A stretch of 64,000 nt of DNA, from positions 2,008 through 66,007 of the IMG/VR virus record IMGVR_UViG_3300028380_000013; one strand, 5' to 3'. This document shows positions 10,701 through 62,303 of this stretch, piece after piece. The notes under the pieces were generated by a model, which searched no databases, was not told where the DNA came from, and worked only from the letters and a program-made list of their open reading frames with translations. A program made the position numbers and the translations under genes. Every line of letters begins with the position of its first letter. The first letter of the stretch is position 1. The DNA is from a virus (taxonomy: Duplodnaviria > Caudoviricetes).

Positions 10701-11035
10701 CAGACACACCGTGGGTAAATCTCGCTGCGATCGTCGGCACGACGTTAGAGCGCACCGTCACCGTGTACGACGCCGCACCGGACGGCTCCGAAGCTTTGGC
10801 GAACCTCTTCGGGTGCTCGCTGACGTTCAGAGTTTACGATCTGTATCGCGCCGTTGTTCTGGAAAAGGTGCTCGATGTTCCTAGCCCCGCGAGCGGTGAA
10901 GGTACGATCGCGCTAGACGCTGACGATCTCTCCGTACTCTCCGCAGCCGCCCCGTATATTTACGATGTACGCTTGATTGACGGGGAGGAAAATGTTTCGG
11001 TAGTCGTGCAAGGCGGCTTTTCAGCTATCGCATGA
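10697..11035 (+). CDS. small beta-sandwich structural protein (BppU N-terminal-like)
   Basis: NLFGCSLTFRV...GTIAL...YIYDVRL pattern; coupled to the repeat protein. Confidence 0.5.
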   Translation: MTDTPWVNLAAIVGTTLERTVTVYDAAPDGSEALANLFGCSLTFRVYDLYRAVVLEKVLDVPSPASGEGTIALDADDLSVLSAAAPYIYDVRLIDGEENVSVVVQGGFSAIA

Positions 11036-11541: not shown

Positions 11542-11558
11542 GAGAGTACGCAGAACAA

Positions 11559-11593
11559 GCGCGCCAGGAGCGCGTCAACACCCCAGGAGGGTG
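11559..11593 (+). promoter_or_regulatory. twin CAGGA-loop hairpins overlapping the scaffold RBS
   Basis: gcgcgc-CAGGA-gcgcgt and caccc-CAGGA-gggtg. Confidence 0.55.
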
Positions 11594-17106: not shown

Positions 17107-17299
17107 CGAGTGGATCGCCTACCAGTACACGATGACGGTCGCGAGATTCGGGAAATGGGTCGATATGATGCTAGAGCAGCGCACGAAAGATGGCAAACAG
17201 CGCTACTCGATTGTCGGACTGCTTGCTGATCAAAAGCAAGTTTTCGCGATGAAGTATCGAACAGACTTCGACCGCTTTCCTGTCGAAGAAGTCGCGTAG
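16991..17299 (+). CDS. tail assembly chaperone frameshift extension (gpT-like)
   Basis: Overlaps gpG in the +1 frame; MYGKTPASLAG...AYQY...FG pattern. Confidence 0.65.
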   Translation: MPDFVQTEAGRWVMWEQHLAAKMYGKTPASLAGLNNPRDEWIAYQYTMTVARFGKWVDMMLEQRTKDGKQRYSIVGLLADQKQVFAMKYRTDFDRFPVEEVA

Positions 17300-17313
17300 A
17301 TCGGAGCTAGCTT

Positions 17314-20300
17314 TTGAGCATCGACATTGGCAGCGCGCATGGGAGTATCGAGCTAAAGACCGATGGCGTTCTTACTTCCGTGCGCGCTGCTGGTGCTGCT
17401 CTTCGTCAGTTCGATCGCGATTCGGCGGGCGTCGGCAAAAATCTGTCGCAGATGGGCAGAGAGGGCGAGGCGGCGGGTAAGGCTGTCGAGGGTGCCGCCA
17501 AGTCTGCCAGCAATTCCGTAAAATCTCTCGGTGAAGTAGCAGGACAAGCGGCGCAAGGTTTTAGCAAAGTCAGCACGGCTGCTACGCTCGCCGGAACTGC
17601 GATAATCGCCGGATTAGGCGCGGCGGCGAAACAGGCGGCGAGTCTTGAAACCGCCGTAACGAAAATCTCCACAATCGCTCCCGAAATAGACACGCATCAA
17701 GTAGAGTCGCAACTTTCGGGAATGTCCACACGTATCGCGCAATCATCGACACAGCTTGCAGAATCGCTCAATACGATATTCTCATCTATCGAGACGAATC
17801 AAGCCGACGCGCTCAAACTCACCGAACAATTCGGTAAAGGTGCTATCGCCGCATCGACAGACGCCGACACGTTCGGCACGGCTGTTCTCGGCGTGATGAA
17901 TGCTTACGGGCTTTCTGTCTCCGATGCTTCGCACATCTCGGATGTATTCTTCAATACGATCAATAAAGGCGTCGTCTCTGGCGATCAACTTGCGCACGGG
18001 CTAGGTCAGGTTACGCAAGCTGCGAAGCTCGCTGGTGTGGATTTCGACACTCTCGGTGCGCTGATCGCTGGCGTCACTCGTGAGGGCGGTGATGCTTCCA
18101 CGAACATCAATAATCTCCAGAATGCTCTCTCGAAAATCTCAACGCCCGACGCCCAAAACGCGCTGAAAGAGATCGGCGTATCCACGAAAGATGCGAACGG
18201 CAACATTCGCAACATGGTGGACATTCTCACCGATCTAAAATCGAAACTCGATGCGCTCTCGCCAGCCGCGCGATCCGAAGCGCTGCGTAAGATTTTCCCC
18301 GATCAACAGGCGCTTGCCGGTATTAGCACGCTGCTCAATCAGCTACCGACGATCAATGAGTCGCTAACGCTCAACGCAAAGTCTGCTGGTAGCGCTTCTG
18401 CTGCTTACGAGAAGATGGGTAAGACAGCAGAAGCGCAGGCGCAGCTACTCAAAAACACGTTCGCCGCAACGCTGCAAGAGCTAGGCACGGCGGTACTTCC
18501 CGATGCGTTGGCGATCGTTACGAAGCTGCGCGATATGCTCGCGGCGTTCAACGATCTGTCTCCGTCAACGCAAGGCGTGATCATTCATTTCGCAGAGTTT
18601 ACGGCTGTCTCATTGTTACTCGTCGGCGCGTTGGGTAAGGTAATCACTTTCGCCACTACCGCCGCTCAATCGTTCCAAGCGCTGAGCGCAGCGACTACGG
18701 CGATGGGTGGTCTATCGGCTGTTGCAACTGTCGCAGGACCGGCGATTATTGCGGTCGGACTCGCTGCTGCGGGCACCGCGATAACGATGCACGAGATGGC
18801 GAAAGGCACGAAAGAAGCTGCCGACGCGATCGGCGGTCCTCTCGCGACAGCTATTCAGAAAGTCAACGTTTCGGGAACTGACGGGCTGCTCGCCTTCTTG
18901 ACCGGATTCTCTGTCGGTGCGGATAAAGCACGTCAAGCGACGAACGATTGGGTAAACGGTTTAGAAGGGACCGCGCCGACGCTCGCGCAGTTGCACACAC
19001 AGTTAGAAGTAACAGCGGCGGCATACAAACGTGTAGTGGACGCGGGTGGTGCGAACTCACCACAAGCAGTTACGCTCGCAGCGATTACCGACGCGCTATT
19101 TCAGCAGATCGCAGCTTGGGAGAAGCTGAACAGCGAGCAAGGTATTCGCGATCGGATGCTGACGAGCGAGGCGGAAGCTGAGCAAGTAGCGACCGCAGCA
19201 GCGCGCGAACACGCCGAAGCGCTTGCGCGGGTACAGGCTGCGCTGACCGAGATGAATGGTCAGCAACAAAAAGTCCCGTTTACGGGCGGCGGCGCTCTCG
19301 CTCAGGGCGCACTCGGTATCGGTCAAGCGAGTCAAGAACTCACGCGCAATCTGCAAGAATATGTGGCGGCTGCGGGTGATGCGATTGCGGTAGATGCGGC
19401 GCAGACTGCGGAAAAACTTCGCCTGACGAATGCTCTCGCTGCGCAACAGTCGGCACTCGGCAACGTACAATCCGCAATCGCTCCGCTCAGCGCTGCGATG
19501 GCGCAACTTGCGGCGAAGCAAGCAGAGGGTATCCCGCTCACGCAAGCTGAGCAAGCGCTGTGGTCGCAGTCAGCAGACGTGCTCGGTGCGGCGCAGTCTG
19601 CCACGCAGGGTTTGACGCTCGCGAGTGCGCAGAATGCTTTAGCGCTGATCAATGCATCTGGGGGTATCACCGCATTCGCTGGGGCTGCTGCCAGTTCGAC
19701 GGGCGCGATCGACAAGCTGCGCGGTATCATCCTCTCGCTCAATGAAGCATTCGGCGCTCTCGGCTCGCAAGACGCGCAGCTTACCGCGTTTGCAGGGAAG
19801 TTCCAGGCGCGCATCGATGTTCTGGAAGCCAGCAAGAAAGCTGGCACCATAACGCCCGAAGAAGTTGGCGAGCTACAGCACTTACTAGACTTGCAAGCGA
19901 AGATTGGCGATCAGCTTGCGATCAACGCGGCGAAGGAACGCGAGATCGCGGAAAATATTCTTGCGGCGAATGAAGCAAAGAAAGCGCAAGAAGTTATCAC
20001 GCAGAATGCGGCGGCTCGCGCTGCTGCCGATGCGGGAAACGAGATCGCGGTAGACCCTGCTTCGCTCGCTGCGGTCAAGGCAATTGTCGATAAACCTGTT
20101 CCGGTCAATCTCGAACCGGCGGTTGATAACGCTTCGCTCGCTGCGGTTCGCGCGATCTTGTCTGAGCCGGTGAAGATTCCCGTAACTGTCGAACCGTCGC
20201 TAGTCAAGACCGGGCTAGACTCGGCTACAGCAGAAGCGATGGGGATTATCGGCACTGGTGGCGGGGCTGGTGCTACGCAGACAGTGACGATCAACGCTAC

Positions 20301-35371: not shown

Positions 35372-35823
35372 CGCACATTCGCCAATCCGTGAAGCTCGGC
35401 CCACGTCGGCTCGATCGGCTCTTGCGTCTCGTTTGCGGGAATTGTTGGCACGAAGCCGTTGACGTTTCCCGCGAGACGTTCGAGATTTATTCGCGTTTTC
35501 TTCGTATATGCCGCCGCAAGCTCTTCGGGACCGACATTGCAGCGATCCATCACGATCGAAGCGAGCGTACCATAGTACGCGGTAACGTCTGCGAACTCAT
35601 CGAGAATGCGCGCGACGTCGGGCGCTTCGCTCTTGCGCCAATACTTCCAACCAAGCTCGTTCGCCAGTTCGTGTATTTCACCCGTCAGCGCGAAGCAGAC
35701 AGTACGCACCGCGTTCTTATTGCTGCTCACCGTCTGCCCGTCGATCAGATTGCGGATCGTTATCTGATCTTTTACGAGCGATGCCAAGCCCGTTGCCCAG
35801 ACTGTCCAACGCATCTCGCTCAT
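35368..35823 (-). CDS. dimeric (all-alpha) dUTPase/dCTPase-like protein
   Basis: GEIHELANELGWKYWRK...DEFAD...YTKKTRINLER. Confidence 0.75.
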   Translation of the reverse strand: MSEMRWTVWATGLASLVKDQITIRNLIDGQTVSSNKNAVRTVCFALTGEIHELANELGWKYWRKSEAPDVARILDEFADVTAYYGTLASIVMDRCNVGPEELAAAYTKKTRINLERLAGNVNGFVPTIPANETQEPIEPTWAELHGLANVR

Positions 35824-35995
35824 ACCTCGCTATCTCTTCACGAATCTTCGCGACAACAGCCGTGCTGATCTCGTCTGTCTCGATCGGAGTGTATGTGCTG
35901 AGCGTGGTAAACGTGCGTACTCCCGCTTCTACCACGCTCAGCACAGCTTCCGCCGAGTCAGCGAATACTTTCGCTTTTTCGTATTCGCTGCTCAT
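35717..35995 (-). CDS. hypothetical protein
   Basis: ORF with RBS; 3' end overlaps the dUTPase-like start. Confidence 0.4.
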   Translation of the reverse strand: MSSEYEKAKVFADSAEAVLSVVEAGVRTFTTLSTYTPIETDEISTAVVAKIREEIARYERDALDSLGNGLGIARKRSDNDPQSDRRADGEQQ

Positions 35996-35996
35996 C

Positions 35997-36389
35997 TTAT
36001 ACCTCGGCTGCGCTGGCGTTCACTTCGACTTGCTTACCGTCGCTGCTGCTGTAACCGAGCGTGACGGTAAGCTCTTCCGGCGATATACCGAGACTTGTCG
36101 CCATGTACACGATGCGATTCGCCACGCGCTGCTCGAACGGGATCGCCCCGTTGTCGATATCGATCACTTTTCCCTCGGGAGCGGGATAGGTGATCGCTTC
36201 ACTCGCTGCGGGCAGCGCTGTTTGCGACTCGGGCCAGAGCGGTTCCAGCTTCTCGAAAACTGTATACTGCTCAACTTGTATCGAGATGATATGCGCAGCT
36301 TGATCAGCGGGTCGGCGGCGCTGATGTTGCGCCATCGTCGCTAGCTGCGCCATCTCATCATCGGTCAGTTGGATCGTTAGACTTTTCAT
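35997..36389 (-). CDS. ribbon-helix-helix DNA-binding protein
   Basis: MKSLTIQLTDDEMAQLATMAQHQRR. Confidence 0.55.
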   Translation of the reverse strand: MKSLTIQLTDDEMAQLATMAQHQRRRPADQAAHIISIQVEQYTVFEKLEPLWPESQTALPAASEAITYPAPEGKVIDIDNGAIPFEQRVANRIVYMATSLGISPEELTVTLGYSSSDGKQVEVNASAAEV

Positions 36390-40661: not shown

Positions 40662-40845
40662 ATTTCGGTCCTTTCTTGTGTGGACTATTGCCGCCCGACT
40701 TGCTGCGAAACGACATACCAATCGCATTCACAACGCGCTGTTTCGTTCGTGGTGGATCAGCGCAACGCCAACAAAAGCCGGTGGCTGTTGAAAGCTGCGC
40801 CTGTTTCCCGCAGTTCGGGCATACGCCGCTGTACCATTCTTTCAT
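40510..40845 (-). CDS. zinc-finger basic protein
   Basis: CPNC...CWRC; ATGA-coupled; tail overlaps the exonuclease start. Confidence 0.4.
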   Translation of the reverse strand: MKEWYSGVCPNCGKQAQLSTATGFCWRCADPPRTKQRVVNAIGMSFRSKSGGNSPHKKGPKYGRQHRGFSISAHKKTPRREQALRKLGARLADRRLVEHDPSHVSQPGREG

Positions 40846-41645
40846 TCGCCGCTCTCCGCAGTCAACGGCACGAGCGCAGGAACTTTCGGGAAATATTCAG
40901 CAGCAAGTCCCGGCATTGCTCCGCTCTTCCACTCTTCGCCTGCCCTGCTGCGCACATCTTCCGCCCACTCGCGAAACGTTTCGAGATCGTAGAAAGACGG
41001 TACGAGGAAGTGCCAATCGAGCGCGGGACCGCTCGCCGCTTCCAGAGACTTTTCGTAAATGTGCGCGTTCGCGACGAAGCAGCTAATTGGCCCGACTCGC
41101 AAGCTCGGCCATACGCAGTTCGCGACGATCTGCGCCAGCCCCGACACGACGATCAGATCGTGCGGTGCGCCGAACCACAAGTCCCAACTACGGAAATACG
41201 CAGTCGTATACAACGTCTTATGGCGCATCTGAAATTGCAGCGACGATAGGCACGGCTGCTCGCTCAGATGCTCTTGCGGATCGGAGATTGTGATGATCGC
41301 GCGCCGACTGTTCGCGCTCTCGCGAAGCTCTTCGATCACGTCTGCAAGCTGATCGGCATAGACGTTGCGCACACGGGGACCGTAGATCGCTGATCGCCCG
41401 AACAAGCTCATATCGACACGCGGGGCGATTGCTGCGATCTCGCTTTCTTCGAATGCTCCGGTGATGAACTGCGCAAGCTCCATATAGCCCAGCTCGCGCC
41501 GCATCTTCTGACGACGCGGGAGCGCGAACGGGAGGATTGTCAAAGCCACGTTACGCATTTCGCGAGCAGGGCCGACGCGGGTATCCACGCGATTCCCGTT
41601 CATGCGACAGTATTCGAGTAGATACCAGTACGAGTCTGCATACAT
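40842..41645 (-). CDS. thymidylate-synthase-family enzyme, probable dCMP (hydroxy)methyltransferase
   Basis: SRRAII, QPCLSSLQF (catalytic Cys), RSWDLWFGAPHD, NAHIY; AGGAG RBS at 41645; in-frame extension to 41798. Confidence 0.8.
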   Translation of the reverse strand: MYADSYWYLLEYCRMNGNRVDTRVGPAREMRNVALTILPFALPRRQKMRRELGYMELAQFITGAFEESEIAAIAPRVDMSLFGRSAIYGPRVRNVYADQLADVIEELRESANSRRAIITISDPQEHLSEQPCLSSLQFQMRHKTLYTTAYFRSWDLWFGAPHDLIVVSGLAQIVANCVWPSLRVGPISCFVANAHIYEKSLEAASGPALDWHFLVPSFYDLETFREWAEDVRSRAGEEWKSGAMPGLAAEYFPKVPALVPLTAESGE

Positions 41646-41799
41646 CGTATTTCTCCTAACAACGTCAGTCTCGATCGCGTCGGCCCACTCTTCCAGATCG
41701 CGCAGCGTGAAACGATCGAGTCCCATGTGTTGCGCGCGTTCGCCCCACTCGCGCTCGTGCGCAGCGACTAACTGGCGAAGCTCGCGCACAACGTCCATA

Positions 41800-43889: not shown

Positions 43890-46043
43890 CTACTCTCCGA
43901 ACTTACCGAACGACCCGAAGATCGTCGCTTTCAGTCTGCCACCGATCAGATAGACTGCTGTATCGCCCGTGCCGTTGTGATATGTCGGATCGACGACTAG
44001 TCCGATCTTGCGCAAGTCTTGATAGAAGATCGGATCGAGCGGGCCGATATACTGACCACGATCTTTCTTCCAACTGACGTAGCGCTGATACACTTCGATG
44101 AGCGGGACGTGTTCGCCTTCGATAATTTCGATCTCGTCTGCCGCGAAGCTGATGATCGGATCAGATGCGGTGCGATACGTCTCGATCGTGGCTTGCACAG
44201 AAGAGGGTAACGTCCACGGTCCCGATCGTTTGATCTCATCGAGCAGACGACGCAAGCCGATGATCGCCCAATTGAGTAGCCCCGCAGCTTCGGATTTCAC
44301 TTTCGCGTCTAGCTCGTCATCTTTCCAACGCGGGTGGTGCAAGAATTCGACGGGAACGATTCTGCGCCACATTCCCTCTCCCTGATCGAGCGGCGGAAGC
44401 TCGTTACTGCCCCAGATCAGTTTGCCGTCAAACGATACGGAGAACGGACGTCCATACGGGTGACGAGCTTGCACCGCATCGCCTGCAACCAACGCTTTCA
44501 CTGTCGAAGTGCGCAGCAGTCGCGGAGACAGTTCGGAGCATGTTCCCGCACGTTTCCCCGCAAGCTGTGCGAGAGAGTATTCCGAAAACTTCTCCGTGGT
44601 GATTGCGGTCGCGGCTGCACCCAAAAGTTGTTCGACCGCTTTTATGTACGTAGACTTTCCGGTTCCGCTCGGGCCGTGTAGCCACAACATGCGCTGCCAG
44701 CGATTGCCAGCCATCAGCACGTAGCCTAGCCACTCTTGCAGATGATCGCGCACTGACGGATGTGGCGCAGCTTCTTCGATGAACCTTTCCCACTCGGGAC
44801 AAGTCGCGGTCGGATCGTAGACGACAGGAACGCACCACAAGTGCCCGCGCTCTTTCTGGATCGGCTCGATCTCTAACGTTTTCAGATTTAGCGTACCGTT
44901 CAGCAGCGGTAGATAATGCGGTTCCGGTTTCGGTAGCGGGTTGTTCGCACAATGCCCGTTCAGCAGTCCCGCTATCGCTGTCGCCATTCGTGCAGTCGGC
45001 GTGTACTCGCGCAATTCTCCTTGATCTACCACGCGAATCTCTGCGAGAATGTCGAACACATCTTTGATGATCGCCTTATCTTCTTGTATCTCCCAATGCG
45101 TGTCGCGCCATCTGACGACTTTACCAACCGCGCCGCTCCAACGTTCAGTCTCGATAATGTAGGCGAGTACATCGCGCTCAACGTTAGAAACGCTACCGAT
45201 ACGCTCGTCAGCGATCACCAGATCGCCGTCGCGAATTGTGATGCCGAGCGCTTCCAGAAGTTTCGCATACTTCTCTTGCGTGAGCGCTGTGCGCAGAGAA
45301 GCGGTTGCGCATATCTCGCCCATCGAGATACGTTGATATGTCTCGCGAACGTTTTTCAGCTTACCGGGCAGATCGGAGCCGGGATTCTTGTCGTACAGTC
45401 GCTCAACGCACGCGAGCGCGCGATCAAGCTCCCAACCCGCTCGCGCTAACACTGCTGCGAGTGCCATCGTCAATGCGTGACGTTCTCCCGAATTATAGTG
45501 AGGGGCGACTAGCGATGAGATGAATTCGGAAGCGAGCGTGTCTGCACTGTACTCTACTTCGTCATCGAACATCAGGATTTGGACGGTGCGGGGCGGTGTG
45601 TACTTTGTGTTCGCTGAGAATGGCAGTCGCAGCGAAGCTCGCGTATTACAGACTTGCGGATCGCCGTCAAAGGTGAGCGTGGCGAGTTTCGCGAGACGTA
45701 CTAAATTTTCGGGCGACTCTGCGACGTCTAAGCGCCAGTAAAGATGGTAGCCGTTCACCCGACCAGAGTGAATGATGACAGTCGGTTTCGGGTCGAAGTC
45801 TGCGGGATCGATCGTTGAGCCGTCAGTGTCGCACCAGACGAGCGTACCATCGGCGGGCGAGTCGTCTGCAAGCTTTCGCGGGATTGCACCGAAGTAGTAA
45901 GATGTAGTCGCAATGTCGGGCAGATCAGGAAGCGCAGCGAGTGCGAACAGAACAGGCTTACCGGGGATCGTGCGCAGTTCGATCCCGCAGTCGATCGGTG
46001 TGCGCGAGTGGATATCGCGCACAAAATCACGATAATCCGTCAT
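43890..46043 (-). CDS. primase-helicase (RepB-like AEP primase plus D5/SF3 helicase)
   Basis: HSG...GYHLYWRL...LRLP; PLLNGTLNL; Walker A GPSGTGKST; SNELP; WRRIVPVEF. Confidence 0.9.
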   Translation of the reverse strand: MTDYRDFVRDIHSRTPIDCGIELRTIPGKPVLFALAALPDLPDIATTSYYFGAIPRKLADDSPADGTLVWCDTDGSTIDPADFDPKPTVIIHSGRVNGYHLYWRLDVAESPENLVRLAKLATLTFDGDPQVCNTRASLRLPFSANTKYTPPRTVQILMFDDEVEYSADTLASEFISSLVAPHYNSGERHALTMALAAVLARAGWELDRALACVERLYDKNPGSDLPGKLKNVRETYQRISMGEICATASLRTALTQEKYAKLLEALGITIRDGDLVIADERIGSVSNVERDVLAYIIETERWSGAVGKVVRWRDTHWEIQEDKAIIKDVFDILAEIRVVDQGELREYTPTARMATAIAGLLNGHCANNPLPKPEPHYLPLLNGTLNLKTLEIEPIQKERGHLWCVPVVYDPTATCPEWERFIEEAAPHPSVRDHLQEWLGYVLMAGNRWQRMLWLHGPSGTGKSTYIKAVEQLLGAAATAITTEKFSEYSLAQLAGKRAGTCSELSPRLLRTSTVKALVAGDAVQARHPYGRPFSVSFDGKLIWGSNELPPLDQGEGMWRRIVPVEFLHHPRWKDDELDAKVKSEAAGLLNWAIIGLRRLLDEIKRSGPWTLPSSVQATIETYRTASDPIISFAADEIEIIEGEHVPLIEVYQRYVSWKKDRGQYIGPLDPIFYQDLRKIGLVVDPTYHNGTGDTAVYLIGGRLKATIFGSFGKFGE

Positions 46044-46110
46044 ACGAACTTCCCCCAACCCAAGTGCCGGGGTGAGATTTCCCCTCACTCACCCCGGCAC
46101 TGTGTACGCG

Positions 46111-46950
46111 CTAGACGAAAACGTTGTGATCGACTAGCTCGCGCTCTTCGTGCGTGATGGGGCGAATGTCGATGATCGGCGCGAAGTAGGTCGAACGCGC
46201 GGGACCGTCGCGCTTCTCAGCAGCAACGCGAACGACGAAGTTCCGATAGCGGCGCATTTTCAGCGAAGCATTGATCTTACGCGCCGCATCGAGTCCGGTT
46301 CGCGACAAGTCCCAGACCGCCATCTGCTCGTGCGTGAGCGAGAATATTTGGTACGAGAATCCCTCGGAGCACTCGGGCGACTTCGACTTGCCGGTAAGCG
46401 GATTCTTCTCGCCCCACTGCGCTTTCGGGCAGTGTGCACAAACGCCGCCAGGAGTACCGACGCCGATCTTACCGTCGAACGACTGGCACATCTGCACGCG
46501 ATCCTCACCGATGCGATAATCGCGGAACGGTGTTGCGGCGATCACGACCAGTTCGAGCGTATCGCACGCAGGCTGTCCGAACATGATGAACTGTCCCGCG
46601 CTCGCCTGTCGCTCCGTCACTTCTTGCGACTGCCCGCCCAACAGACGGAGACGCGGAATGTGTAAGTCCTTCGACTCGAAATCGTAGAATTCTTCGTACA
46701 CGCGACCGGAAGGCGCGAACTGCTCGCTATCATCAGCCGTCACGAGCGCTGCGCCGTTACCGTGCTGTTGCTTCTCCAAGAGCGCTTCGAAGTCAACGCC
46801 TTCGTTCGGCGTGTCGATCGCGTCGGGCGTGACGTCGATCACCGGGAGCGGCGTCTTGCGCTTCCAGGGTGGGACGTCGCCGTTACCATCGAGAATTTGA
46901 TCGATCTTGTCCGGTTGCTTCGTCGCGTCGTTCTTTGTTGGCGTGCTCAT
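46111..46950 (-). CDS. putative ssDNA-binding/annealing protein
   Basis: DLHIPRLRLLGGQS...CAHCPKAQWG...C; adjacent to the primase. Confidence 0.5.
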   Translation of the reverse strand: MSTPTKNDATKQPDKIDQILDGNGDVPPWKRKTPLPVIDVTPDAIDTPNEGVDFEALLEKQQHGNGAALVTADDSEQFAPSGRVYEEFYDFESKDLHIPRLRLLGGQSQEVTERQASAGQFIMFGQPACDTLELVVIAATPFRDYRIGEDRVQMCQSFDGKIGVGTPGGVCAHCPKAQWGEKNPLTGKSKSPECSEGFSYQIFSLTHEQMAVWDLSRTGLDAARKINASLKMRRYRNFVVRVAAEKRDGPARSTYFAPIIDIRPITHEERELVDHNVFV

Positions 46951-47873
46951 CGCTGCTTCGTCTCCTGTTTCGAGAATTCTGCGATCAAGTCGGTGAATAG
47001 TTGCGCGTGCTCCTGCTGCTTAGCGCCACCGAACAACGTGCGCAGCGGAGGAAGTAGGCGAACATCTCTCACGGCGACGTGGTTATAGCACCACGCTTCG
47101 GCTTCTCGATCGGTCGCGAGTAGCACACGCGCTGAACGGAGGACCACGGGCGGTACTCTGCGTGCGTGCGCCCAGCCCCATTCGAGCGCTGCCGCATCGA
47201 GAAAGTTCGCGAGCTTCATTCCGCCTTTCCCCGAAAACGGTAAGTATGCTCCTACCCATGAGGCTATATCGTCTTTCTCGGCAGAACCGACGACGACCAC
47301 TTTCGCGCTGAGTGGCCCACAATAGCCGGGATACATCTCTAGCTCGGGGCGATTATCTATCGGTAGCTGCGAGAGTATCGCGAGAATGTTTTCCGCGAGT
47401 CCTGTGATCGTGTAATCGTTGCTCAGCTTGTGCCAGCCCCAGCGTTGCGCGTATACGTCGTAAAATGCGCGCTCTATGCGCGTGTCGGCGTTCTCGCGCT
47501 TTTCGAAACTACTCGCAGACTGCAACGCGAGAGTTTGCGAGGGAGCGAGCAGCATCACGCGAACGCCGCACGTCTGAGCGAGTCGCCCGTAATGCCATTC
47601 CCCGAAAAGCGCTGAGCACGCATAGCCCGAAGCATGATTGTAGAGTCGCTGATTGATCTCGTCTGCTGCCCAACTCCCTTCCCAGACGACAACTTTTCCG
47701 GCGTTGAGCGCGCCGATATCTGTGCCCCAGATCGCATCGAATGCTGTCGAATGGCGCAGCTTCGCGATATCGTGCCAGTGTCGCAGATACGATCCAGGCA
47801 CGATATCGCAGAGTGCTTTAGCTAGCGATGTTTTTCCGACACCGCTGGGACCGTCGATCACGATGAATGGCAT
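46947..47873 (-). CDS. dNMP kinase fused to a degenerate UDG-fold domain
   Basis: P-loop IDGPSGVGKT; C-terminal GPLSAKVVVVG...LPFSGKGGMKL. Confidence 0.65.
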   Translation of the reverse strand: MPFIVIDGPSGVGKTSLAKALCDIVPGSYLRHWHDIAKLRHSTAFDAIWGTDIGALNAGKVVVWEGSWAADEINQRLYNHASGYACSALFGEWHYGRLAQTCGVRVMLLAPSQTLALQSASSFEKRENADTRIERAFYDVYAQRWGWHKLSNDYTITGLAENILAILSQLPIDNRPELEMYPGYCGPLSAKVVVVGSAEKDDIASWVGAYLPFSGKGGMKLANFLDAAALEWGWAHARRVPPVVLRSARVLLATDREAEAWCYNHVAVRDVRLLPPLRTLFGGAKQQEHAQLFTDLIAEFSKQETKQR

Positions 47874-53796: not shown

Positions 53797-53821
53797 CGTC
53801 GTCTCCGTTCGCTAGTTCGTC

Positions 53822-53874
53822 GCGCTCTCAATCGAGCACATACGTAGCTTACTCTCAATCTCGCAGCTTGTCAA
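53822..53874 (-). promoter_or_regulatory. early promoter plus leader hairpin
   Basis: TTGACA-N17-TAAGCT; GUGCUC-GAUUGA-GAGCGC. Confidence 0.85.
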
Positions 53875-54039
53875 GAGTTTCGGGCGAGCAAGTTTCTGGA
53901 AAGTTTGAGACTAGTATGGGGCGAGAAAGTTTCTGGAAACATTGTGCGATTCGTGAAAGGGCTACGCCGGAATGCTGCGCAGCGATACGCGCTGAGACGT
54001 CGCAGGAGCACGGCTTTAGCGCGCGAGCGTAGCGAACAA

Positions 54040-54079
54040 GCACGAAGAAGCGGTGAGCGCTTGGGGGAGCGCTCACCGC
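54040..54079 (-). terminator. intrinsic terminator-like hairpin
   Basis: gcggtgagcgct (12 bp perfect) followed on the - strand by ttcttc. Confidence 0.6.
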
Positions 54080-54634: not shown

Positions 54635-54692
54635 TGCATCGTCCTTTCGCTTACTTCGTAGTGTCGCGCAATCGAGCGACTTCGTTAGAGTT

Positions 54693-54721
54693 ATCTTACC
54701 ACGATGAACAAGCAATAGCAA
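54693..54721 (-). promoter_or_regulatory. early promoter
   Basis: TTGCTA-N17-TAAGAT, followed by a CTCGATTGC leader. Confidence 0.6.
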
Positions 54722-54753
54722 GCGTTTTCGCTCTCAATTTCTGCTAAAGAGAA

Positions 54754-54803
54754 CAGTTCGACTCGCTCACACGTACAACTGACGGCGTGAGCGAGTCGAA
54801 CTG
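54754..54803. other. 17-bp perfect inverted repeat (long hairpin)
   Basis: cagttcgactcgctcac / gtgagcgagtcgaactg. Confidence 0.8.
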
Positions 54804-54833: not shown

Positions 54834-55655
54834 TTACTCGCTGTCGGGCGTCTCGTCCTCTTCGGGTGCTTCGTCTGTCACGCCGTGCGTGTCGATGAGC
54901 ACCGGAACGCCGGTCGCAAGCATCTCGTTCCAGACTGCTTCGCGCAGTTCGTCGCCCGTCAGCGTGCTAGAGAGTGCGGCGGAAGGGAAGCACGAGCGCT
55001 GCTGCGAGTAGCTGTAGCCCTCGATCATCGTCTGCTTCGCCGCTGCGAGCGTGTCGGCGTCGGCTAGCTCGCCCAGCGCATCGAGCAGCGCGGAGAGTAC
55101 GGCAGACTCTTTGCGGATACGATTCTGCGCCCACAGCAGCGAGCCGATGTTGAAAGACAGTTTGTGGCAGCGCTTGTGCAGTTCATCGATCGTCGGCTCC
55201 CAGCCCTGGCGCTTCGCCTTCTTCGTCTCCGCGATCGTGTCGCGCTCAGCTTGCTCGGCGGCGAGTCGGGCGCGGTGCTGTTCGAGCTTCGCGGCTACGG
55301 CGTCGGCATCGAGCATCGGCTTGACTGCGGGCGGAACTTCGATCTCGGGAGCGGGCGTGGCGGGCGTCTCGCTTTCGAAAAGCGCACCCAGCGCAGCTTC
55401 GATCTTGTCGGTGCGCTCGCTCAGCGTTAGCTCAGGAGCGGGTCCGGTGCCGACAGTCTCGGGAGTCGGCGGTGTTTGCGGAATTTCGAGATTGAGGACA
55501 GGATTGAGCGCATCGAGCTTGCTCAGCGCTGCGTCGATCATCGCGTCCTTCGAGACACCGACCGGGAGAGTGATATCGCGAGAGCGGAGCAGCGTGCGAA
55601 TCTGAGTCGCGTTCAGCAGTTCGAGCGAGTCGCGGGTGATGGTGGTCGCGGTCAT
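54834..55655 (-). CDS. protein with N-terminal Rho_N/HeH-like domain
   Basis: LELLNATQIRTLLRSRDITLPVGVSKDAMIDAAL. Confidence 0.55.
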   Translation of the reverse strand: MTATTITRDSLELLNATQIRTLLRSRDITLPVGVSKDAMIDAALSKLDALNPVLNLEIPQTPPTPETVGTGPAPELTLSERTDKIEAALGALFESETPATPAPEIEVPPAVKPMLDADAVAAKLEQHRARLAAEQAERDTIAETKKAKRQGWEPTIDELHKRCHKLSFNIGSLLWAQNRIRKESAVLSALLDALGELADADTLAAAKQTMIEGYSYSQQRSCFPSAALSSTLTGDELREAVWNEMLATGVPVLIDTHGVTDEAPEEDETPDSE

Positions 55656-55727
55656 TGTCGTGTCCTTTCGAGTGATTTTCAACGCTCAGCAGTTAGAGCG
55701 TTCGGGCAGCGCGTTTGCGGAAAGCGG

Positions 55728-56012
55728 TTAGTAGGTGACGAAGAGCGAATAGCCGTTCGGTGCGACTTGCATTCCGGCTTCGGTAAGCGCAAGTTCGGCG
55801 TACTCAATCATCTCGCGCTCTTCGCGTGTTGCGTTTGCGGAAGTCGCTGCGGCATCGCTCGTCACGAAGCGCACCCACACCGCGCCATTCGTGCGCTCGC
55901 TTTGCTCGGTGTAGAATCCGGGGGTAAACGCCTTGCGAACGATCGTGCTCTTCGTCATACCCGCTTCGCGCAGCACCTTCGAGACTGCAAGCTGAGAAAT
56001 GCGCTTCGCCAT
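55728..56012 (-). CDS. hypothetical protein downstream of the structured RNA
   Basis: AGGGAG RBS. Confidence 0.6.
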   Translation of the reverse strand: MAKRISQLAVSKVLREAGMTKSTIVRKAFTPGFYTEQSERTNGAVWVRFVTSDAAATSANATREEREMIEYAELALTEAGMQVAPNGYSLFVTY

Positions 56013-56044
56013 GATGTTGCTCCCTGCTGACGACTTCGAATCGA

Positions 56045-56225
56045 GCGAACTTGCGAGAGCAGTACGGGCCGTTTCGCATCACTATCCCTTATCGTATCCG
56101 GCTCTATTTCAGCGCGGCTTCGGAATCAGGTTTTCCGTCTAGCGAGGAAGTGCGCTTTCGCGTCTAATCGCTGCTAGTGCGGGTGCTTGCGTGTTCCTCT
56201 TCGCTACTGCTCTCGCTTCGTTCGC
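56045..56225 (-). ncRNA. candidate structured RNA (standalone ncRNA or long 5' leader)
   Basis: ~230-nt gap under its own promoter; 12-bp perfect closing helix 56205-16/56053-64 plus 6-bp helix 56220-25/56045-50; several internal helices. Confidence 0.6.
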
Positions 56226-56277
56226 TGCGCTCATCTGAGCGCACTCTTACCTTACAGCATGGATTCGAGCTTGTCAA
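56226..56277 (-). promoter_or_regulatory. early promoter plus leader hairpin
   Basis: TTGACA-N17-TAAGGT; UGCGCUC-AGAU-GAGCGCA. Confidence 0.8.
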
Positions 56278-56290
56278 GCGTTTCCGCAAA

Positions 56291-56782
56291 CTAAAATGGC
56301 ACGTCGTCGTCATCGAGCGCGTTTGCAGAAATATGATCGTATGCGCCGCTCGGCAGACGGAACGTGCGAACTTCGATTCCGTCGATCGTCTCGATCTCGT
56401 CGGCATCGGGGTCGCCGTAAGCCGACTCGATCTCGATATTGCAGTTGGCGCAGTTCACGGGAGCGCCTTCGTAGAAAATATCCATCGCGAGCGTGTTCGT
56501 CTTTGACAGTTCGGGGCGTAGTTTCGAGAAGTCAGGATCGGTCGGATCGTAACCGTCGTGCAGCACCCACAGGCGAGCGCAGTCGGCGCAAAGGGTATCG
56601 CCGTTCGCGTCGATGTAGAGAATCGGATAGCCACCGGGGAAAGCGAACGGCGCGAACAGTTCGTGATCGATCGCTTTCATGATCTCGTCTCGCGTCATCG
56701 GGTGAGCAGGGTAGCGACGATTGAACGCGAGATAGTGACGGAAGCGGCGAGCGTAGGCTTTGCGGGAAACTTGCTCAGACAT
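56291..56782 (-). CDS. Cys-motif phage protein
   Basis: FAFPGGYP...LCADC...CANCNIEIESAYG. Confidence 0.65.
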   Translation of the reverse strand: MSEQVSRKAYARRFRHYLAFNRRYPAHPMTRDEIMKAIDHELFAPFAFPGGYPILYIDANGDTLCADCARLWVLHDGYDPTDPDFSKLRPELSKTNTLAMDIFYEGAPVNCANCNIEIESAYGDPDADEIETIDGIEVRTFRLPSGAYDHISANALDDDDVPF

Positions 56783-57645: not shown

Positions 57646-57862
57646 GAACGTGCGCGGCGCAATCGAGACAGTACCGACCGGATTTCGGGGTGTTGCGCAG
57701 CACGCGAGTATAAGCGACGAAGAATTCGCGATTGGATTCGAAGATCGTGCCGCAGCACTCGCACGGGAGGCGCTTGCGAGATTCGCTGATGTACGAGCCG
57801 GGGTAGAGTGCAACGCCGTCAACTGCGAGCGTGTCGGCTGCGGGGTAAGATAGGCGGGTCAT
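57620..57862 (-). CDS. zinc-finger protein
   Basis: CECCG...CLDC; first gene after a promoter. Confidence 0.6.
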   Translation of the reverse strand: MTRLSYPAADTLAVDGVALYPGSYISESRKRLPCECCGTIFESNREFFVAYTRVLRNTPKSGRYCLDCAAHVLANACPVR

Positions 57863-57886
57863 CGTCGTCTCCGTTCGCGAGTCGTT

Positions 57887-57939
57887 GCGCTCTCAGTTGA
57901 GCACGTTCTTAGCTTACTCTATGAAAATTGCCCTGTCAA
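57887..57939 (-). promoter_or_regulatory. early promoter plus leader hairpin
   Basis: TTGACA-N17-TAAGCT; GUGCUC-AACUGA-GAGCGC. Confidence 0.85.
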
Positions 57940-57969: not shown

Positions 57970-58800
57970 TTAGCGCTGAGCGCTCGCAAGGAAAGTGTTC
58001 GTGTTGTTGTACGCGAGCATTAGCGAGCCGATCATCTTCTTGCGAGAACCGGAGAGGCGCATTCCGTACTCACGGCGTGCGAAGTTCGCTAGCTCGTGAT
58101 TGAGCATGAGCGACAGCTTGCGCCAGAACGCGGTAGCGTCGGTAGCGCACGAGTCGCAGCAATCGCCGGAAACGTAGCCGAAGCGCAGAAACGTCGCCCC
58201 GTCGATCGGGAAGCGCCCGCAAGTGGGGCATACGGGAACGTCGCTCGCGTGCATCTCTTCGCGATCGGGCGTCTCGCGCAGTTCGTTGAGCGCGTCGGCG
58301 TAGCGTTCTGCACGCTGCTCGCGAACTTCGCGCCCGTAATTGACGATCTCGTTGTACGCTGCGCGCTCGGCATCGGCTTCGGCGTTCTGTTGCAAGCGAG
58401 CAGCTTCGATGGCATCGAACAGCGCAGCATCGGCAGCCATCGCGAGCAAGTGAGCGCGCTCGGCATCGCCGTTCGGGTCGCAGTCGGGGCACGTACCATC
58501 GGGAACTGCAAGACCGCACGTTCCGCAAGCGATCGAGCGCTCAGCGTTGCGCGCTTCGTGCTGCGCCGTGATCTGCTCTTCTTCGAACACGGAACCGGCG
58601 GGGCAGTCGCACGAGATGCGACCTTCCGGCTCATCGATGTAACCGCGATTCCCACAATCGGGGCAAGACGTGTCGGCTTCGACGCGCTCGTCGGCTGCGG
58701 CATCGCGAAGCATCTCGGCGCGAATGGCTGCGCCCTCGATGAGCATCTGATCGTACTCGGCGTCGGAGTAGGAGTCGCTGCCGAAGTAGAACGCTGCCAT
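57970..58800 (-). CDS. multi-zinc-ribbon protein with C-terminal Rho_N-like helical domain
   Basis: CPDC..CDC, CGTC..CPDC, CPTC..CCDSC; LSLMLNHELANFARREYGMRLSGSRKKMI. Confidence 0.6.
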   Translation of the reverse strand: MAAFYFGSDSYSDAEYDQMLIEGAAIRAEMLRDAAADERVEADTSCPDCGNRGYIDEPEGRISCDCPAGSVFEEEQITAQHEARNAERSIACGTCGLAVPDGTCPDCDPNGDAERAHLLAMAADAALFDAIEAARLQQNAEADAERAAYNEIVNYGREVREQRAERYADALNELRETPDREEMHASDVPVCPTCGRFPIDGATFLRFGYVSGDCCDSCATDATAFWRKLSLMLNHELANFARREYGMRLSGSRKKMIGSLMLAYNNTNTFLASAQR

Positions 58801-58826
58801 TTTCGTATTCTCCCTGTTCGCTGCCC

Positions 58827-58879
58827 GCGCTCACAATCAAGCGCACTCTTACTCTAAACTAAGTTTGAGCGCGTGTCAA
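58827..58879 (-). promoter_or_regulatory. early promoter plus leader hairpin
   Basis: TTGACA-N17-TAGAGT; GCGCUU-GAUUGU-GAGCGC. Confidence 0.8.
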
Positions 58880-59151
58880 GTGGTTTCCGCAAGAAAGTTT
58901 TCGGAAACGGTATCGTACTCGGGAAAGCGGGGCAAGTCGCGAGCGAGCATGTAACGTGCGATCGAAGCTGCGAGCGAGACGGCGAGACGGCGATAGGTGA
59001 GCGCGATCAGCCAGTCGCTAGCTACGCGAGATGAGTAGACGTAAGCGAGCAGATCGCGATCGAGCGAGTCGCAGCGATCAGCGAAGTTTATGGAATCGCA
59101 GTCTGAGCACGAGAGAAGCTGAGCGTTCGTGGGAAGCTTGGTGCGCGTCAT
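58876..59151 (-). CDS. hypothetical protein
   Basis: GAAAGGA RBS; CSDCDS motif. Confidence 0.5.
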   Translation of the reverse strand: MTRTKLPTNAQLLSCSDCDSINFADRCDSLDRDLLAYVYSSRVASDWLIALTYRRLAVSLAASIARYMLARDLPRFPEYDTVSENFLAETT

Positions 59152-59228: not shown

Positions 59229-59429
59229 TCAGTATTCTGCGTTTGCGTAAAACTCGTCTTTGCGATTCTGATACCGCTGATCCATCGCTGCGAGCGTGTC
59301 GCGAACGTTTGCGGAAAGTGATTCAAGCTGCGCGCGATAGCGGCTGTCGGGTGTCGCGGTGATTGCGCGATTCAAGCGCTGCTCCCACTCTTGCAAGCGG
59401 GCGTACTCTGCGGTATCGATGCCGAACAT
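59229..59429 (-). CDS. hypothetical protein
   Basis: AAGGAG RBS. Confidence 0.55.
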   Translation of the reverse strand: MFGIDTAEYARLQEWEQRLNRAITATPDSRYRAQLESLSANVRDTLAAMDQRYQNRKDEFYANAEY

Positions 59430-59899: not shown

Positions 59900-59976
59900 C
59901 TCTGTGATCCTTTCTTTCGAACTGCGCTCGCTAGCCCCGAAGTTGAGACTAGCGAGCGCAACGTGAGTGGAGCGAG

Positions 59977-60777
59977 CTACAGGCCGAGCTTGCGAGCACA
60001 TTCGGGGCCAACACCGCGCGAGATAGAAGCGGGAACGGTGAGCTTGCGATTGCACTTCCAGCAGTTGCCGGATTCGAGTGCGTAAGCGTAGCCCGCTTCG
60101 GCGTGGTTGTCGCCTTGCAGCAAGTAGGCGAGAGCAGATTGCAGGAGCGCGCTACCGTTGCGGAACTTCTTCCAGATGATCGCCTTGCCCGTGGAAGAGA
60201 CGAACGCGAACCCGACGTAATCACCTTCGTTGCACGGGCCGTTGAGGAACTTCGCAACGCGAGTGCCGCGAAACTTCTCGGCGTCGTCCCAGTGATCGGT
60301 CAGCTTGATCGTGCGGCGCTCGCTACCCATGACGACGGTGTACGTGCCGTTCGGGACTGCGCGAAACTGCTTGTCGGCGCTCACGAACGTCTGCGCTTCT
60401 TCGACAGTGATTGCGGTCGGCGTTGCGGAAATCTGCTCGCGCTTCTCGCGACTGTAGAAAGCATCTTCGGCGCGCTGATCTTGCAGCTTCGCGAACTGCG
60501 CTTCCGCAATCTCGATCGCGATGTTCTGCTCAGCGGCGGGCTTGCGATTCGTAATCAGCGAAGCTGCGTAGTCGGTCGTCGGGGCGGTGCGGATACCGTT
60601 GATGTGCGCGTACACTTTGCGCAGTTCGTCGCGCTGCGCGGTGAGCGTGTCGATCTGCTCGGTCAGCGCCTTGCCCTTGATCGCGATCATCGAGAGGATT
60701 TCGGTCATCGTGTGGCCGCTGTTCATCAGCGAGAAAGCGTGCGCGAGAGCGGTTTCGTAGGTGATGGTGGCGCTCAT
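59977..60777 (-). CDS. DUF6011-domain protein
   Basis: CWKCNRKLTVPASISRGVGPECA. Confidence 0.8.
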   Translation of the reverse strand: MSATITYETALAHAFSLMNSGHTMTEILSMIAIKGKALTEQIDTLTAQRDELRKVYAHINGIRTAPTTDYAASLITNRKPAAEQNIAIEIAEAQFAKLQDQRAEDAFYSREKREQISATPTAITVEEAQTFVSADKQFRAVPNGTYTVVMGSERRTIKLTDHWDDAEKFRGTRVAKFLNGPCNEGDYVGFAFVSSTGKAIIWKKFRNGSALLQSALAYLLQGDNHAEAGYAYALESGNCWKCNRKLTVPASISRGVGPECARKLGL

Positions 60778-60805
60778 CGGATTTTGCTCCTTCGTGTCGT
60801 TCGTC

Positions 60806-60858
60806 GCGCTCTCAATCGAGCACGCTCTAAGATTACTCTAATTCTCGGGACGTGTCAA
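60806..60858 (-). promoter_or_regulatory. early promoter plus leader hairpin
   Basis: TTGACA-N17-TAATCT; GUGCUC-GAUUGA-GAGCGC. Confidence 0.85.
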
Positions 60859-60889
60859 GTGGTTTTCAAAGAGAGGTTTGCGGAAATTA

Positions 60890-61955: not shown

Positions 61956-61977
61956 CGCTGACTCCTGTTCGCTAACC

Positions 61978-62030
61978 GCGCTCGCAATCAAGCGCACTGT
62001 AAGTGTAAACTAAAGGCGAGAGAGAGTCAA
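61978..62030 (-). promoter_or_regulatory. early promoter plus leader hairpin
   Basis: TTGACT-N17-TACACT; GCGCUU-GAUUGC-GAGCGC. Confidence 0.75.
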
Positions 62031-62303
62031 GAGTATGTGAGCTGTAGCGAACACGTTTACAGAAAGCGCGCCGGTTGTCGATATAGGGCTGAGGGTAGCT
62101 CGGGGCGGGTCGCCAACTGAGGGTGAGCGCTTCGAAGCGCAAGGGCAAGCTAGCGAGCGAGAGCGGGCTAAAGTGCTGCCCTTTGTGCCCCGGCTGAGCG
62201 GTGGGAAGCGGCGGGGGAGCGAGAGTGTTACGAGTCATCTGATACCTCGGGCGAGTTTACGATCGGATTGTGTAAAGTGCTATCCGCAGTTTGCTAAGCA
62301 CGT

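Follow-up and report, generated by a model that had tools for sequence, protein, structure and literature searches.

What is encoded in the 278-nt gap (56013-56290) between two early genes of an uncultivated soil phage? The record of this virus (66,007 bp) is rated 100% complete, and the stretch analysed here, called the window below, covers 64,000 nt of it (bases 2008-66007). Structural genes are located on the + strand of the window and replication genes and small early genes on the - strand. The identical sequence is also present in rhizosphere and soil DNA metagenomes, and the sequencing runs recorded as containing it include no RNA run. Among cultured phages no close relative was found, nucleotide matches being absent and the best protein identities lying below 27%. 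The initial annotation had read the gap as a promoter-driven structured RNA, possibly with a group I intron-like core.

An early promoter module with a long leader

The gap is bordered by genes of 163 and 94 aa (Table 1). It had been described as lacking a credible gene, and this is confirmed: on the - strand, stop codons close all three sense frames and no credible ORF is left, the longest one (31 aa, - strand) having its start codon inside a hairpin loop and no counterpart in the distantly related, likewise uncultivated phage L014 presented below. ARAGORN detected no tRNA or tmRNA. Every motif that had been listed for the gap is present where the initial annotation had placed it, including the TTGACA-N17-TAAGGT promoter, the helices of 12 and 6 bp and the CGC-GAAA-GCG hairpin at 56162-56153.

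Table 1. Coordinates of the element, its helices and the neighbouring early-region features in the window
Feature	Position	Strand	Remarks
163-aa gene	56291-56782	-	Upstream border of the gap
TTTGCGGAAAC motif	56278..56290	-	Adjoins the -35 hexamer; GAAAC-N2-3-TTGACA pattern also at other early promoters
Predicted early sigma-70-type promoter	56249..56277	-	TTGACA 56277-56272, 17-nt spacer, TAAGGT 56254-56249
5' hairpin GCGCUC-AGAU-GAGCGC	56227..56242	-	At predicted transcript start; common to other early promoters
P1a	56225-56220 GCGAAC / 56050-56045 GUUCGC	-	6 bp; C-G to A-U in L014, compensatory
GAA/AA internal loop	Between P1a and P1b	-	Conserved in L014
P1b	56216-56205 GCGAGAGCAGUA / 56064-56053 UACUGCUCUCGC	-	12 bp, identical in both phages
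GCGAAGAGG	56196..56204	-	G bulge, P1c (CG), AAGA bulge, P1d (GG); conserved
P1c/P1d 3' strand CCCG	56065-56068	-	Pairs with 56196..56204; 2 bp each
P2 5' strand (CGC..CAC)	56183..56191	-	Pairs with 56075-56082
P3 arm	56135..56182	-	CCG/CGG base, CUAGC/GCUAG, UUAGA/CACU internal loop, CGC-GAAA-GCG tip
P3 GNRA tetraloop	56156-56159	-	GAAA
Junction AAAA between P3 and P4	56131..56134	-	Invariant
P4 arm	56087..56130	-	CCU/AGG base, UC/GA, upper hairpin
P4 loop GAAAUAG	56104-56110	-	Conserved
Junction GAUA, P2 3' strand (GUG..GCG), AAACGG	56069..56086	-	AAACGG conserved
3' strands CCCG (P1d/P1c), UACUGCUCUCGC (P1b), AA, GUUCGC (P1a)	56045..56068	-	
Linker to 94-aa gene	56013..56044	-	SD GGGAG 56020-56024; no U-tract terminator; not conserved in L014
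94-aa gene	55728-56012	-	Downstream border of the gap
274-aa gene	54834..55658	-	41%-identical homologue (294 aa) directly after the element in L014
Terminator-like site	54754..54803	-	17-bp hairpin then UUCUCUUU/TTCTCTTT; closes 94-aa and 274-aa operon; next promoter follows
Second terminator-like hairpin	54050-54079	-	12 bp then TTCTTCGTGC
Early promoter-leader modules	53817-53940, 57859-57920, 58813-58907, 60792-60886, 61964-62031	-	Alignable with 56227-56290
Weaker seventh module	54660-54735	-	
TTCCGCAAACGC matches	Include 55711-55722, 55831-55842, 56319-56330, 59239-59250, 59305-59316		

Repeat analysis places the promoter among six paralogous early modules that can be aligned within the window; a seventh, weaker one is located near 54.7 kb. 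Their consensus is composed of GAAAC-N2-3-TTGACA, 17 nt, TA(A/G/C)N(C/G)T and a hairpin G(C/U)GCU(C/U)-loop-GAGCGC, after which come a CGAAC motif in most copies and an SD and start codon in all of them. The hairpin at 56227..56242 has a pair probability above 0.99. A C-G pair is exchanged for U.G in a close relative of the phage (the X12 variant, see below), and the same exchanges among the paralogues indicate that this hairpin acts at the RNA level. A hammerhead-like CAGAUGAG in its loop was dropped, since the loop differs among the paralogues. The other modules reach their start codon about 20-35 nt past the hairpin, while in the module considered here about 190 additional nt precede the SD. 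No terminator was found between the 163-aa gene and the promoter. L014 has modules of the same kind, with TTGACA-N17/18-TAT(T/C)CT and a GUCGC hairpin; for one leader the identity between the phages is 90% (window 58775-58816, L014 11720-11761).

The early region is also where matches to the motif TTCCGCAAACGC are concentrated, with 10 of them at no more than one mismatch against 0.69 expected. Two related half-palindromes, GTTTCCAGAAAC and TTTGCGGAAAC, are found directly upstream of -35 hexamers. Judged from these sequences, TTCCGCAAACGC and the related half-palindromes may be a candidate binding site for a regulator.

The evidence for a fold that can be obtained from the window alone is weak, and only the combined 12+6 bp closing helix stands out. 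The folding z-score is -2.1 for the leader of 238 nt and -3.3 for the 180-nt core in comparison with shuffles, and compared with all the 180-nt windows of the phage the core has a z of -1.5 (7-10th percentile). With a separation of 30-300 nt, perfect inverted repeats of 12 nt are found at 6 loci, about the frequency seen in shuffles (3.2 ± 2.3 hits). The 12+6 bp combination is unique and was obtained in 0/60 shuffles, although this figure is weakened by a 4-5 times over-representation of the GCGAAC and GTTCGC hexamers in the phage. The structural significance that had been attributed to the locus holds, on this basis, for the closing helix and does not hold for the inner 140 nt that it encloses, which fold no better than shuffles (z = -0.02). 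Among the 180-nt windows that fold most strongly for their composition (z about -4 to -4.8) are 35821-36000, 45961-46140 and 17251-17430, and a perfect 16-bp hairpin at 35894-35945 is included in these.

A syntenic homologue and the fold of the element

Two homologues of the 274-aa protein, P0017 and P0018 (40-41% identical), are encoded in loci of the JGI contigs L014 (64.5 kb), L015 (64.6 kb) and the shorter L016 and L017. L014 and the window are syntenic in their gene order, and a 408-nt gap that holds the element lies between P0019, the homologue of the 163-aa protein (35% identity), and the 294-aa gene. The flanking proteins are 35% and 41% identical, versus 81-83% for the element at the nucleotide level; the 183-nt core (L014 9752-9934) aligns with window 56225-56045, and 34 of the 183 columns differ. 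When the 11-kb early region was compared with L014 by blastn, only two substantial matches were obtained, the element (83% over 179 nt, E = 5e-47) and part of a DUF6011-like gene. This second match joins window 59926-60357 (- strand), part of a 266-aa gene (PHROG 636), to L014 6078-6499 with 78% nucleotide identity, and it is the L014 counterpart that matches DUF6011. A recent exchange of the segment between the phages could in part account for the high identity of the element, rather than selection alone.

The surroundings of the element in L014 are alike on its 5' side. The promoter, TTGACA-N18-TATCCT, has 10/12 matches to that of the window, and the 5' hairpin reads GUCGC-AAGCGA-GCGAC. On the 3' side, about 45 nt, a second hairpin, AGCGAAC and an SD precede the GTG start of the 294-aa gene, and the 94-aa gene is absent at the corresponding place. 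The interval between the upstream gene and the promoter of the element in L014 contains a perfect inverted repeat of 13 bp around a 30-nt loop (GAGCGGCGTTACG ... CGTAACGCCGCTC; L014:9606-9662), which is absent from the window and has a chance-level Rfam match (MIR8001).

RNAalifold, the MFE structure predicted independently for the L014 copy and the folding of each arm by itself all lead to the same architecture, in which an interrupted closing helix, P1, is followed by P2 and a three-way junction with the arms P3 and P4. The closing helices and the GAAA hairpin, both noticed in the initial annotation, are kept in L014, and the loops, the bulges and P1b are identical in sequence in both phages. 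In P2a (CGC/GCG) a C-G pair becomes U.G in L014, and P2b (CAC/GUG) reads UCA/UGG, with two double changes and one wobble, so that, over P2 as a whole, two pairs are changed on both sides in a compensatory way and two go from C-G to U.G. The P3 arm has a G-C to A-U change at its base and an A-U to G-C change mid-arm, around a retained UUAGA/CACU internal loop and CGC-GAAA-GCG tip. In P4, a U-A pair at the base becomes C-G, and the upper stem CCGcGCU/AGCCGG is swapped for CUCUGC/GCAGAG around GAAAUAG.

In the two-sequence MAFFT alignment 99.1% of the cells are paired. In this one pairwise comparison, which covers two independent lineages with minor variants and whose starting structure comes partly from one of them, six pairs are changed on both sides, versus 0-1 when the partners are slid by 1-3 columns, and this number was reached in 7/500 shuffles; with the columns fixed, two further pairs are changed to wobble. 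RNAalifold found six compensatory pairs independently, and a further two appear once the upper P4 stem is realigned by structure, eight in total. About half of the 34 differing columns are thus compensatory (12 in the six pairs and about 4 more in the realigned P4 stem). The substitution rates are alike in stems and loops, which indicates that the stems are repaired and not merely conserved. The L014 copy has a folding z of -5.0 (0/200 shuffles), and each arm, folded separately, takes a like shape in both phages. At three positions the pair in L014 is G.U, which agrees only with the transcribed strand, and the antisense fold of L014 is weaker (z = -3.55 versus -5.0 for the sense strand).

These compensatory changes in a syntenic homologue are decisive over the evidence of the window alone, and from the two sequences we conclude, with high confidence, that 56045-56225 (- strand) encodes a real and conserved structured RNA of about 180 nt. 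The part of the initial annotation that proposed a promoter-driven structured non-coding RNA is upheld; the promoter module is present in both phages, the fold covaries and no Rfam family corresponds to it. The shuffle-like inner 140 nt, and a core that is no outlier among the windows of the phage, would also suit a chance structure in a decayed gene or plain spacer. We regard this explanation as hardly credible in view of the 83% nucleotide identity next to proteins of 35-41%, the eight compensatory pairs, and reading frames that are closed, the 31-aa frame not being common to L014.

The same comparison bears on an element acting at the DNA level, such as a small transposon with inverted repeats (MITE), a segment that can invert, or a site for replication or packaging, since the locus can be described as about 190 extra nt inside a standard promoter-leader module and bounded by inverted repeats. 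However, its internal helices covary with G.U pairs on the transcribed strand only, and its position is syntenic in both phages. The repeat pair has no other copies in the viral, metagenome and genome collections, with one per phage, no direct repeat (target-site duplication) flanks it, and no integrase, resolvase or reverse transcriptase gene was found. A DNA element is accordingly very improbable. The 66-kb phage genome has no RVT_1 match, which also speaks against membership among retron, DGR or group II ncRNAs.

The group I-like core is the part of the initial annotation that L014 contradicts. The element shares with group I introns only a similar size and the way in which four short complementary segments follow one another in this single sequence, two of them forming a P3-like helix (GAGGAA/UUCCUC) and two a P7-like helix (CACUA/UAGUG). 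In L014 the former reads GAGGCA/UUCCCG, with 3/6 pairs lost; its pairing probability is about 1%, and forcing it costs +3.9 kcal/mol. The latter loses one pair, overlaps the covarying P2b and P3 helices and costs +6.8 kcal/mol when forced. Covariation in a homologue, which had been named as a check, gives a divided answer, L014 supporting P1a, P2, P3 and P4 of the present fold while both of those group I-like helices fail. The S-element-like AAGGGAUAGUG reads AGGGGAUAUGG in L014 and belongs to helices P4a and P2b plus a junction. The CGGAA/UUCCG hairpin keeps 4/5 pairs in L014, but two of these are only wobbles and it competes with the covarying P3a and P4a; it may be an alternative conformer.

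The Rfam 15 comparison, made with 801 nt around the element and with the L014 copy, gave no match at the gathering score or at E ≤ 10, Intron_gpI included, and only chance-level matches (NEAT1_2, MIR8001, sR12). This check, also foreseen in the initial annotation, speaks against group I and for an RNA without an Rfam family. The element moreover lies between complete genes, downstream of a promoter, with no exons, no P4-P6 domain and no guanosine-binding pair. A minimal group I-like ribozyme is already refuted by the homologue and deserves next to no credence.

Four smaller motifs were also set aside: a T-loop-like UUCGAAG after P1 and a pairing in trans of GUUCGC with AGCGAAC leaders, neither of them conserved in L014, a kink-turn in P1, whose strands do not fit the consensus, and a boxA-like GCUCU within P1b, which is base-paired.

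Position in the early operon and proposed function

The order is the same in both phages: promoter, short 5' hairpin, element, one or two genes, always including that of 274/294 aa, and terminator. In L014, as in the window, a terminator-like hairpin and a further promoter come after the 294-aa gene, and the layout of terminator-like sites is the same (10889-10940 and 11545-11578). In the window the two terminator-like hairpins, both strong, break up the early region into short cassettes, and after every cassette a new promoter follows. Directly 3' of the element no terminator was found in either phage, nor was there a conserved alternative pairing with the ribosome-binding site.

The gene that adjoins the element varies, with the 94-aa gene in the window, another one in X12 and the 294-aa gene directly in L014, and a translational operator for one particular gene is therefore unlikely. 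The proposal that the RNA is a regulatory leader of the gene at 55728-56012 is accordingly retained for its position ahead of this gene and not for the gene itself, which is absent in L014 and replaced by another start in X12. The 274-aa protein has no Pfam or PHROG family, and its AlphaFold model (pLDDT 57) is too poor for a fold search. At its N-terminus it has a short helical module, with a weak hint of similarity to HeH/SAP/Rho_N motifs; a proline-rich linker follows, and the C-terminal half is helical and holds many invariant residues.

As P1 is an invariant helix of about 20 bp, a classical switch helix is ruled out, and we infer that the element is not of the riboswitch on/off type. The invariance of the bulges, the loops and P1b points to recognition by a specific partner. 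We tentatively favour a function in cis, in which the domain of about 180 nt would be transcribed from the early sigma-70-type promoter as the first part of the mRNA and would work, as RNA, on its own transcript. It would be a rigid module recognised by protein, and candidate partners are a phage protein, the RNA polymerase engaged in transcribing it, or a nuclease that would process the ~20-bp P1, such as RNase III. The domain would then set the output of the downstream early operon, most plausibly through read-through of terminators by the polymerase or by fixing the processing or stability of the message. Taken as a whole, fold and mechanism together, the statement that this is a cis-acting leader RNA domain without an Rfam family comes close to an even chance without reaching it, the mechanism being deduced from position.

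Known RNAs resemble the element in part. The put RNA of phage HK022 measures about 70 nt and has two stem-loops, and the EAR of the Bacillus eps operon is a similar cis-acting processive antiterminator RNA. In the account given in PMC9378689, put works by itself on the very polymerase that has transcribed it, suppressing pausing and termination. Like these RNAs, the element is promoter-proximal, folded and non-coding. It belongs to a phage early operon, has intrinsic terminators downstream of it in both phages and carries no expression platform of its own; this fit concerns position only. It differs from put in its size (about 180 nt), its 20-bp closing helix and its three-way junction, and no similarity in sequence or model was detected. 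RNase III processing stems, known from the R sites of T7, which are simple hairpins, from the lambda N leader and from rRNA stems, recall the long interrupted helix of the element, which spans about two turns, has conserved internal loops, is placed between cistrons in an early transcript and loops out a folded domain. However, the helix of the element closes a conserved domain of 140 nt, which is not required for pure processing.

The main rival to the cis reading is a stable RNA acting in trans, cut out of the leader at the P1 stem much as RNase III frees ribosomal RNAs from their processing stems. Its target would belong to the host or the phage, and it could serve, for instance, as a protein decoy. 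A promoter of its own directly upstream in both phages, 5' and 3' ends held together in a helix of about 20 bp, invariant loops and bulges as expected for a specific partner, and the persistence of the element while the adjoining gene varies would all agree with it. It has, however, no terminator or other defined 3' end and is always found in the sense orientation ahead of the same operon, and its release would need the host enzyme, the phage encoding no RNase III. We consider a trans-acting RNA unlikely, although it is a serious alternative.

A self-cleaving ribozyme or a ligand-sensing aptamer of a new kind in the leader is improbable. The compact three-way junction, the GNRA tetraloop and the strict conservation of loops, bulges and junctions speak for it, and this level of conservation is typical of ribozymes and aptamers. 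The c-di-GMP-I riboswitch, for instance, is a three-way-junction aptamer with a GNRA tetraloop, and here too P1 closes a two-arm junction, one arm is capped by a GNRA loop, and conserved loops accompany covarying stems. Nevertheless, no Rfam ribozyme or riboswitch was matched, even weakly, P1 is, with 20 bp, far too stable as a switch helix, and 3' of the element there is no conserved expression platform, be it a terminator or an alternative that sequesters the SD.

To our knowledge, very few phage RNAs act through their fold in the way of HK022 put, and phage early regions are rich in unexplained sequence. There is a minor chance that the element is the founding case of a new class of complex-folded phage RNAs acting on transcription or on another host machine. 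Such a class could be a put-like antiterminator of wholly different architecture, or a new class of ribozyme or aptamer, and it would travel as a portable module behind the early promoters of a lineage of uncultivated soil phages. Being compact, and with its helices, invariant loops and genomic setting defined, the element can be synthesised and put to the test directly. A helix pattern that looks like chance in one genome can, as in this case, be validated by a single distant homologue.

Variants and distribution

In the X12 variant, a relative of about 93% identity from a 2025 soil run, the tetraloop GAAA is changed to GCAA, the GNRA type being kept, and one C-G pair of the 5' hairpin is U.G; three more differences all fall in the promoter spacer. 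After the SD, X12 has a different gene start in place of the 94-aa gene. One low-depth contig has a tetraloop that reads GAAG, and in L025 the P4 loop is changed to GAAACAG. L002 and L003 are identical copies without variation.

A 1-kb contig with an identical upstream gene (L027:640-720) carries a deletion of about 160 nt, with the junction GAACCA/GCGCAC; promoter and 5' hairpin are both lost through it, and the element lacks its 5' half. This may be a natural variant or a misassembly; if it is real, the element is dispensable.

A candidate covariance model of the element, derived from both lineages, finds exactly one copy per phage and offers a handle for finding further members in soil viromes. 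DNA pattern scans of viral, metagenome and genome collections, which evidently hold no L014-type samples and were scanned before the conserved blocks were known, gave 0 matches for the repeat pair, and scans with the promoter-module pattern, with a pattern of three loop blocks and with three 21-22-mers from the inner part of the element gave 0 or 6 unrelated single matches. A search of IMG/VR for related loci with the 163-aa, 94-aa and DNA polymerase proteins returned nothing, and neither the 94-aa nor the 163-aa protein has a close relative. Of the distant homologues of the 94-aa protein, one has its gene in a densely packed, leaderless locus and the contig of another ends 46 nt upstream; the element is absent from the loci of the 163-aa homologues P0003, P0006 and P0008.

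Elsewhere in the window a thymidylate-synthase-like gene and a weak thymidylate-kinase-like match were observed (40842-41798 and 46947-47873), and L014 carries a PF20691 (TAGT) gene at 66-1031. Together, these gene sequences hint that this phage lineage may have DNA with modified thymidine.
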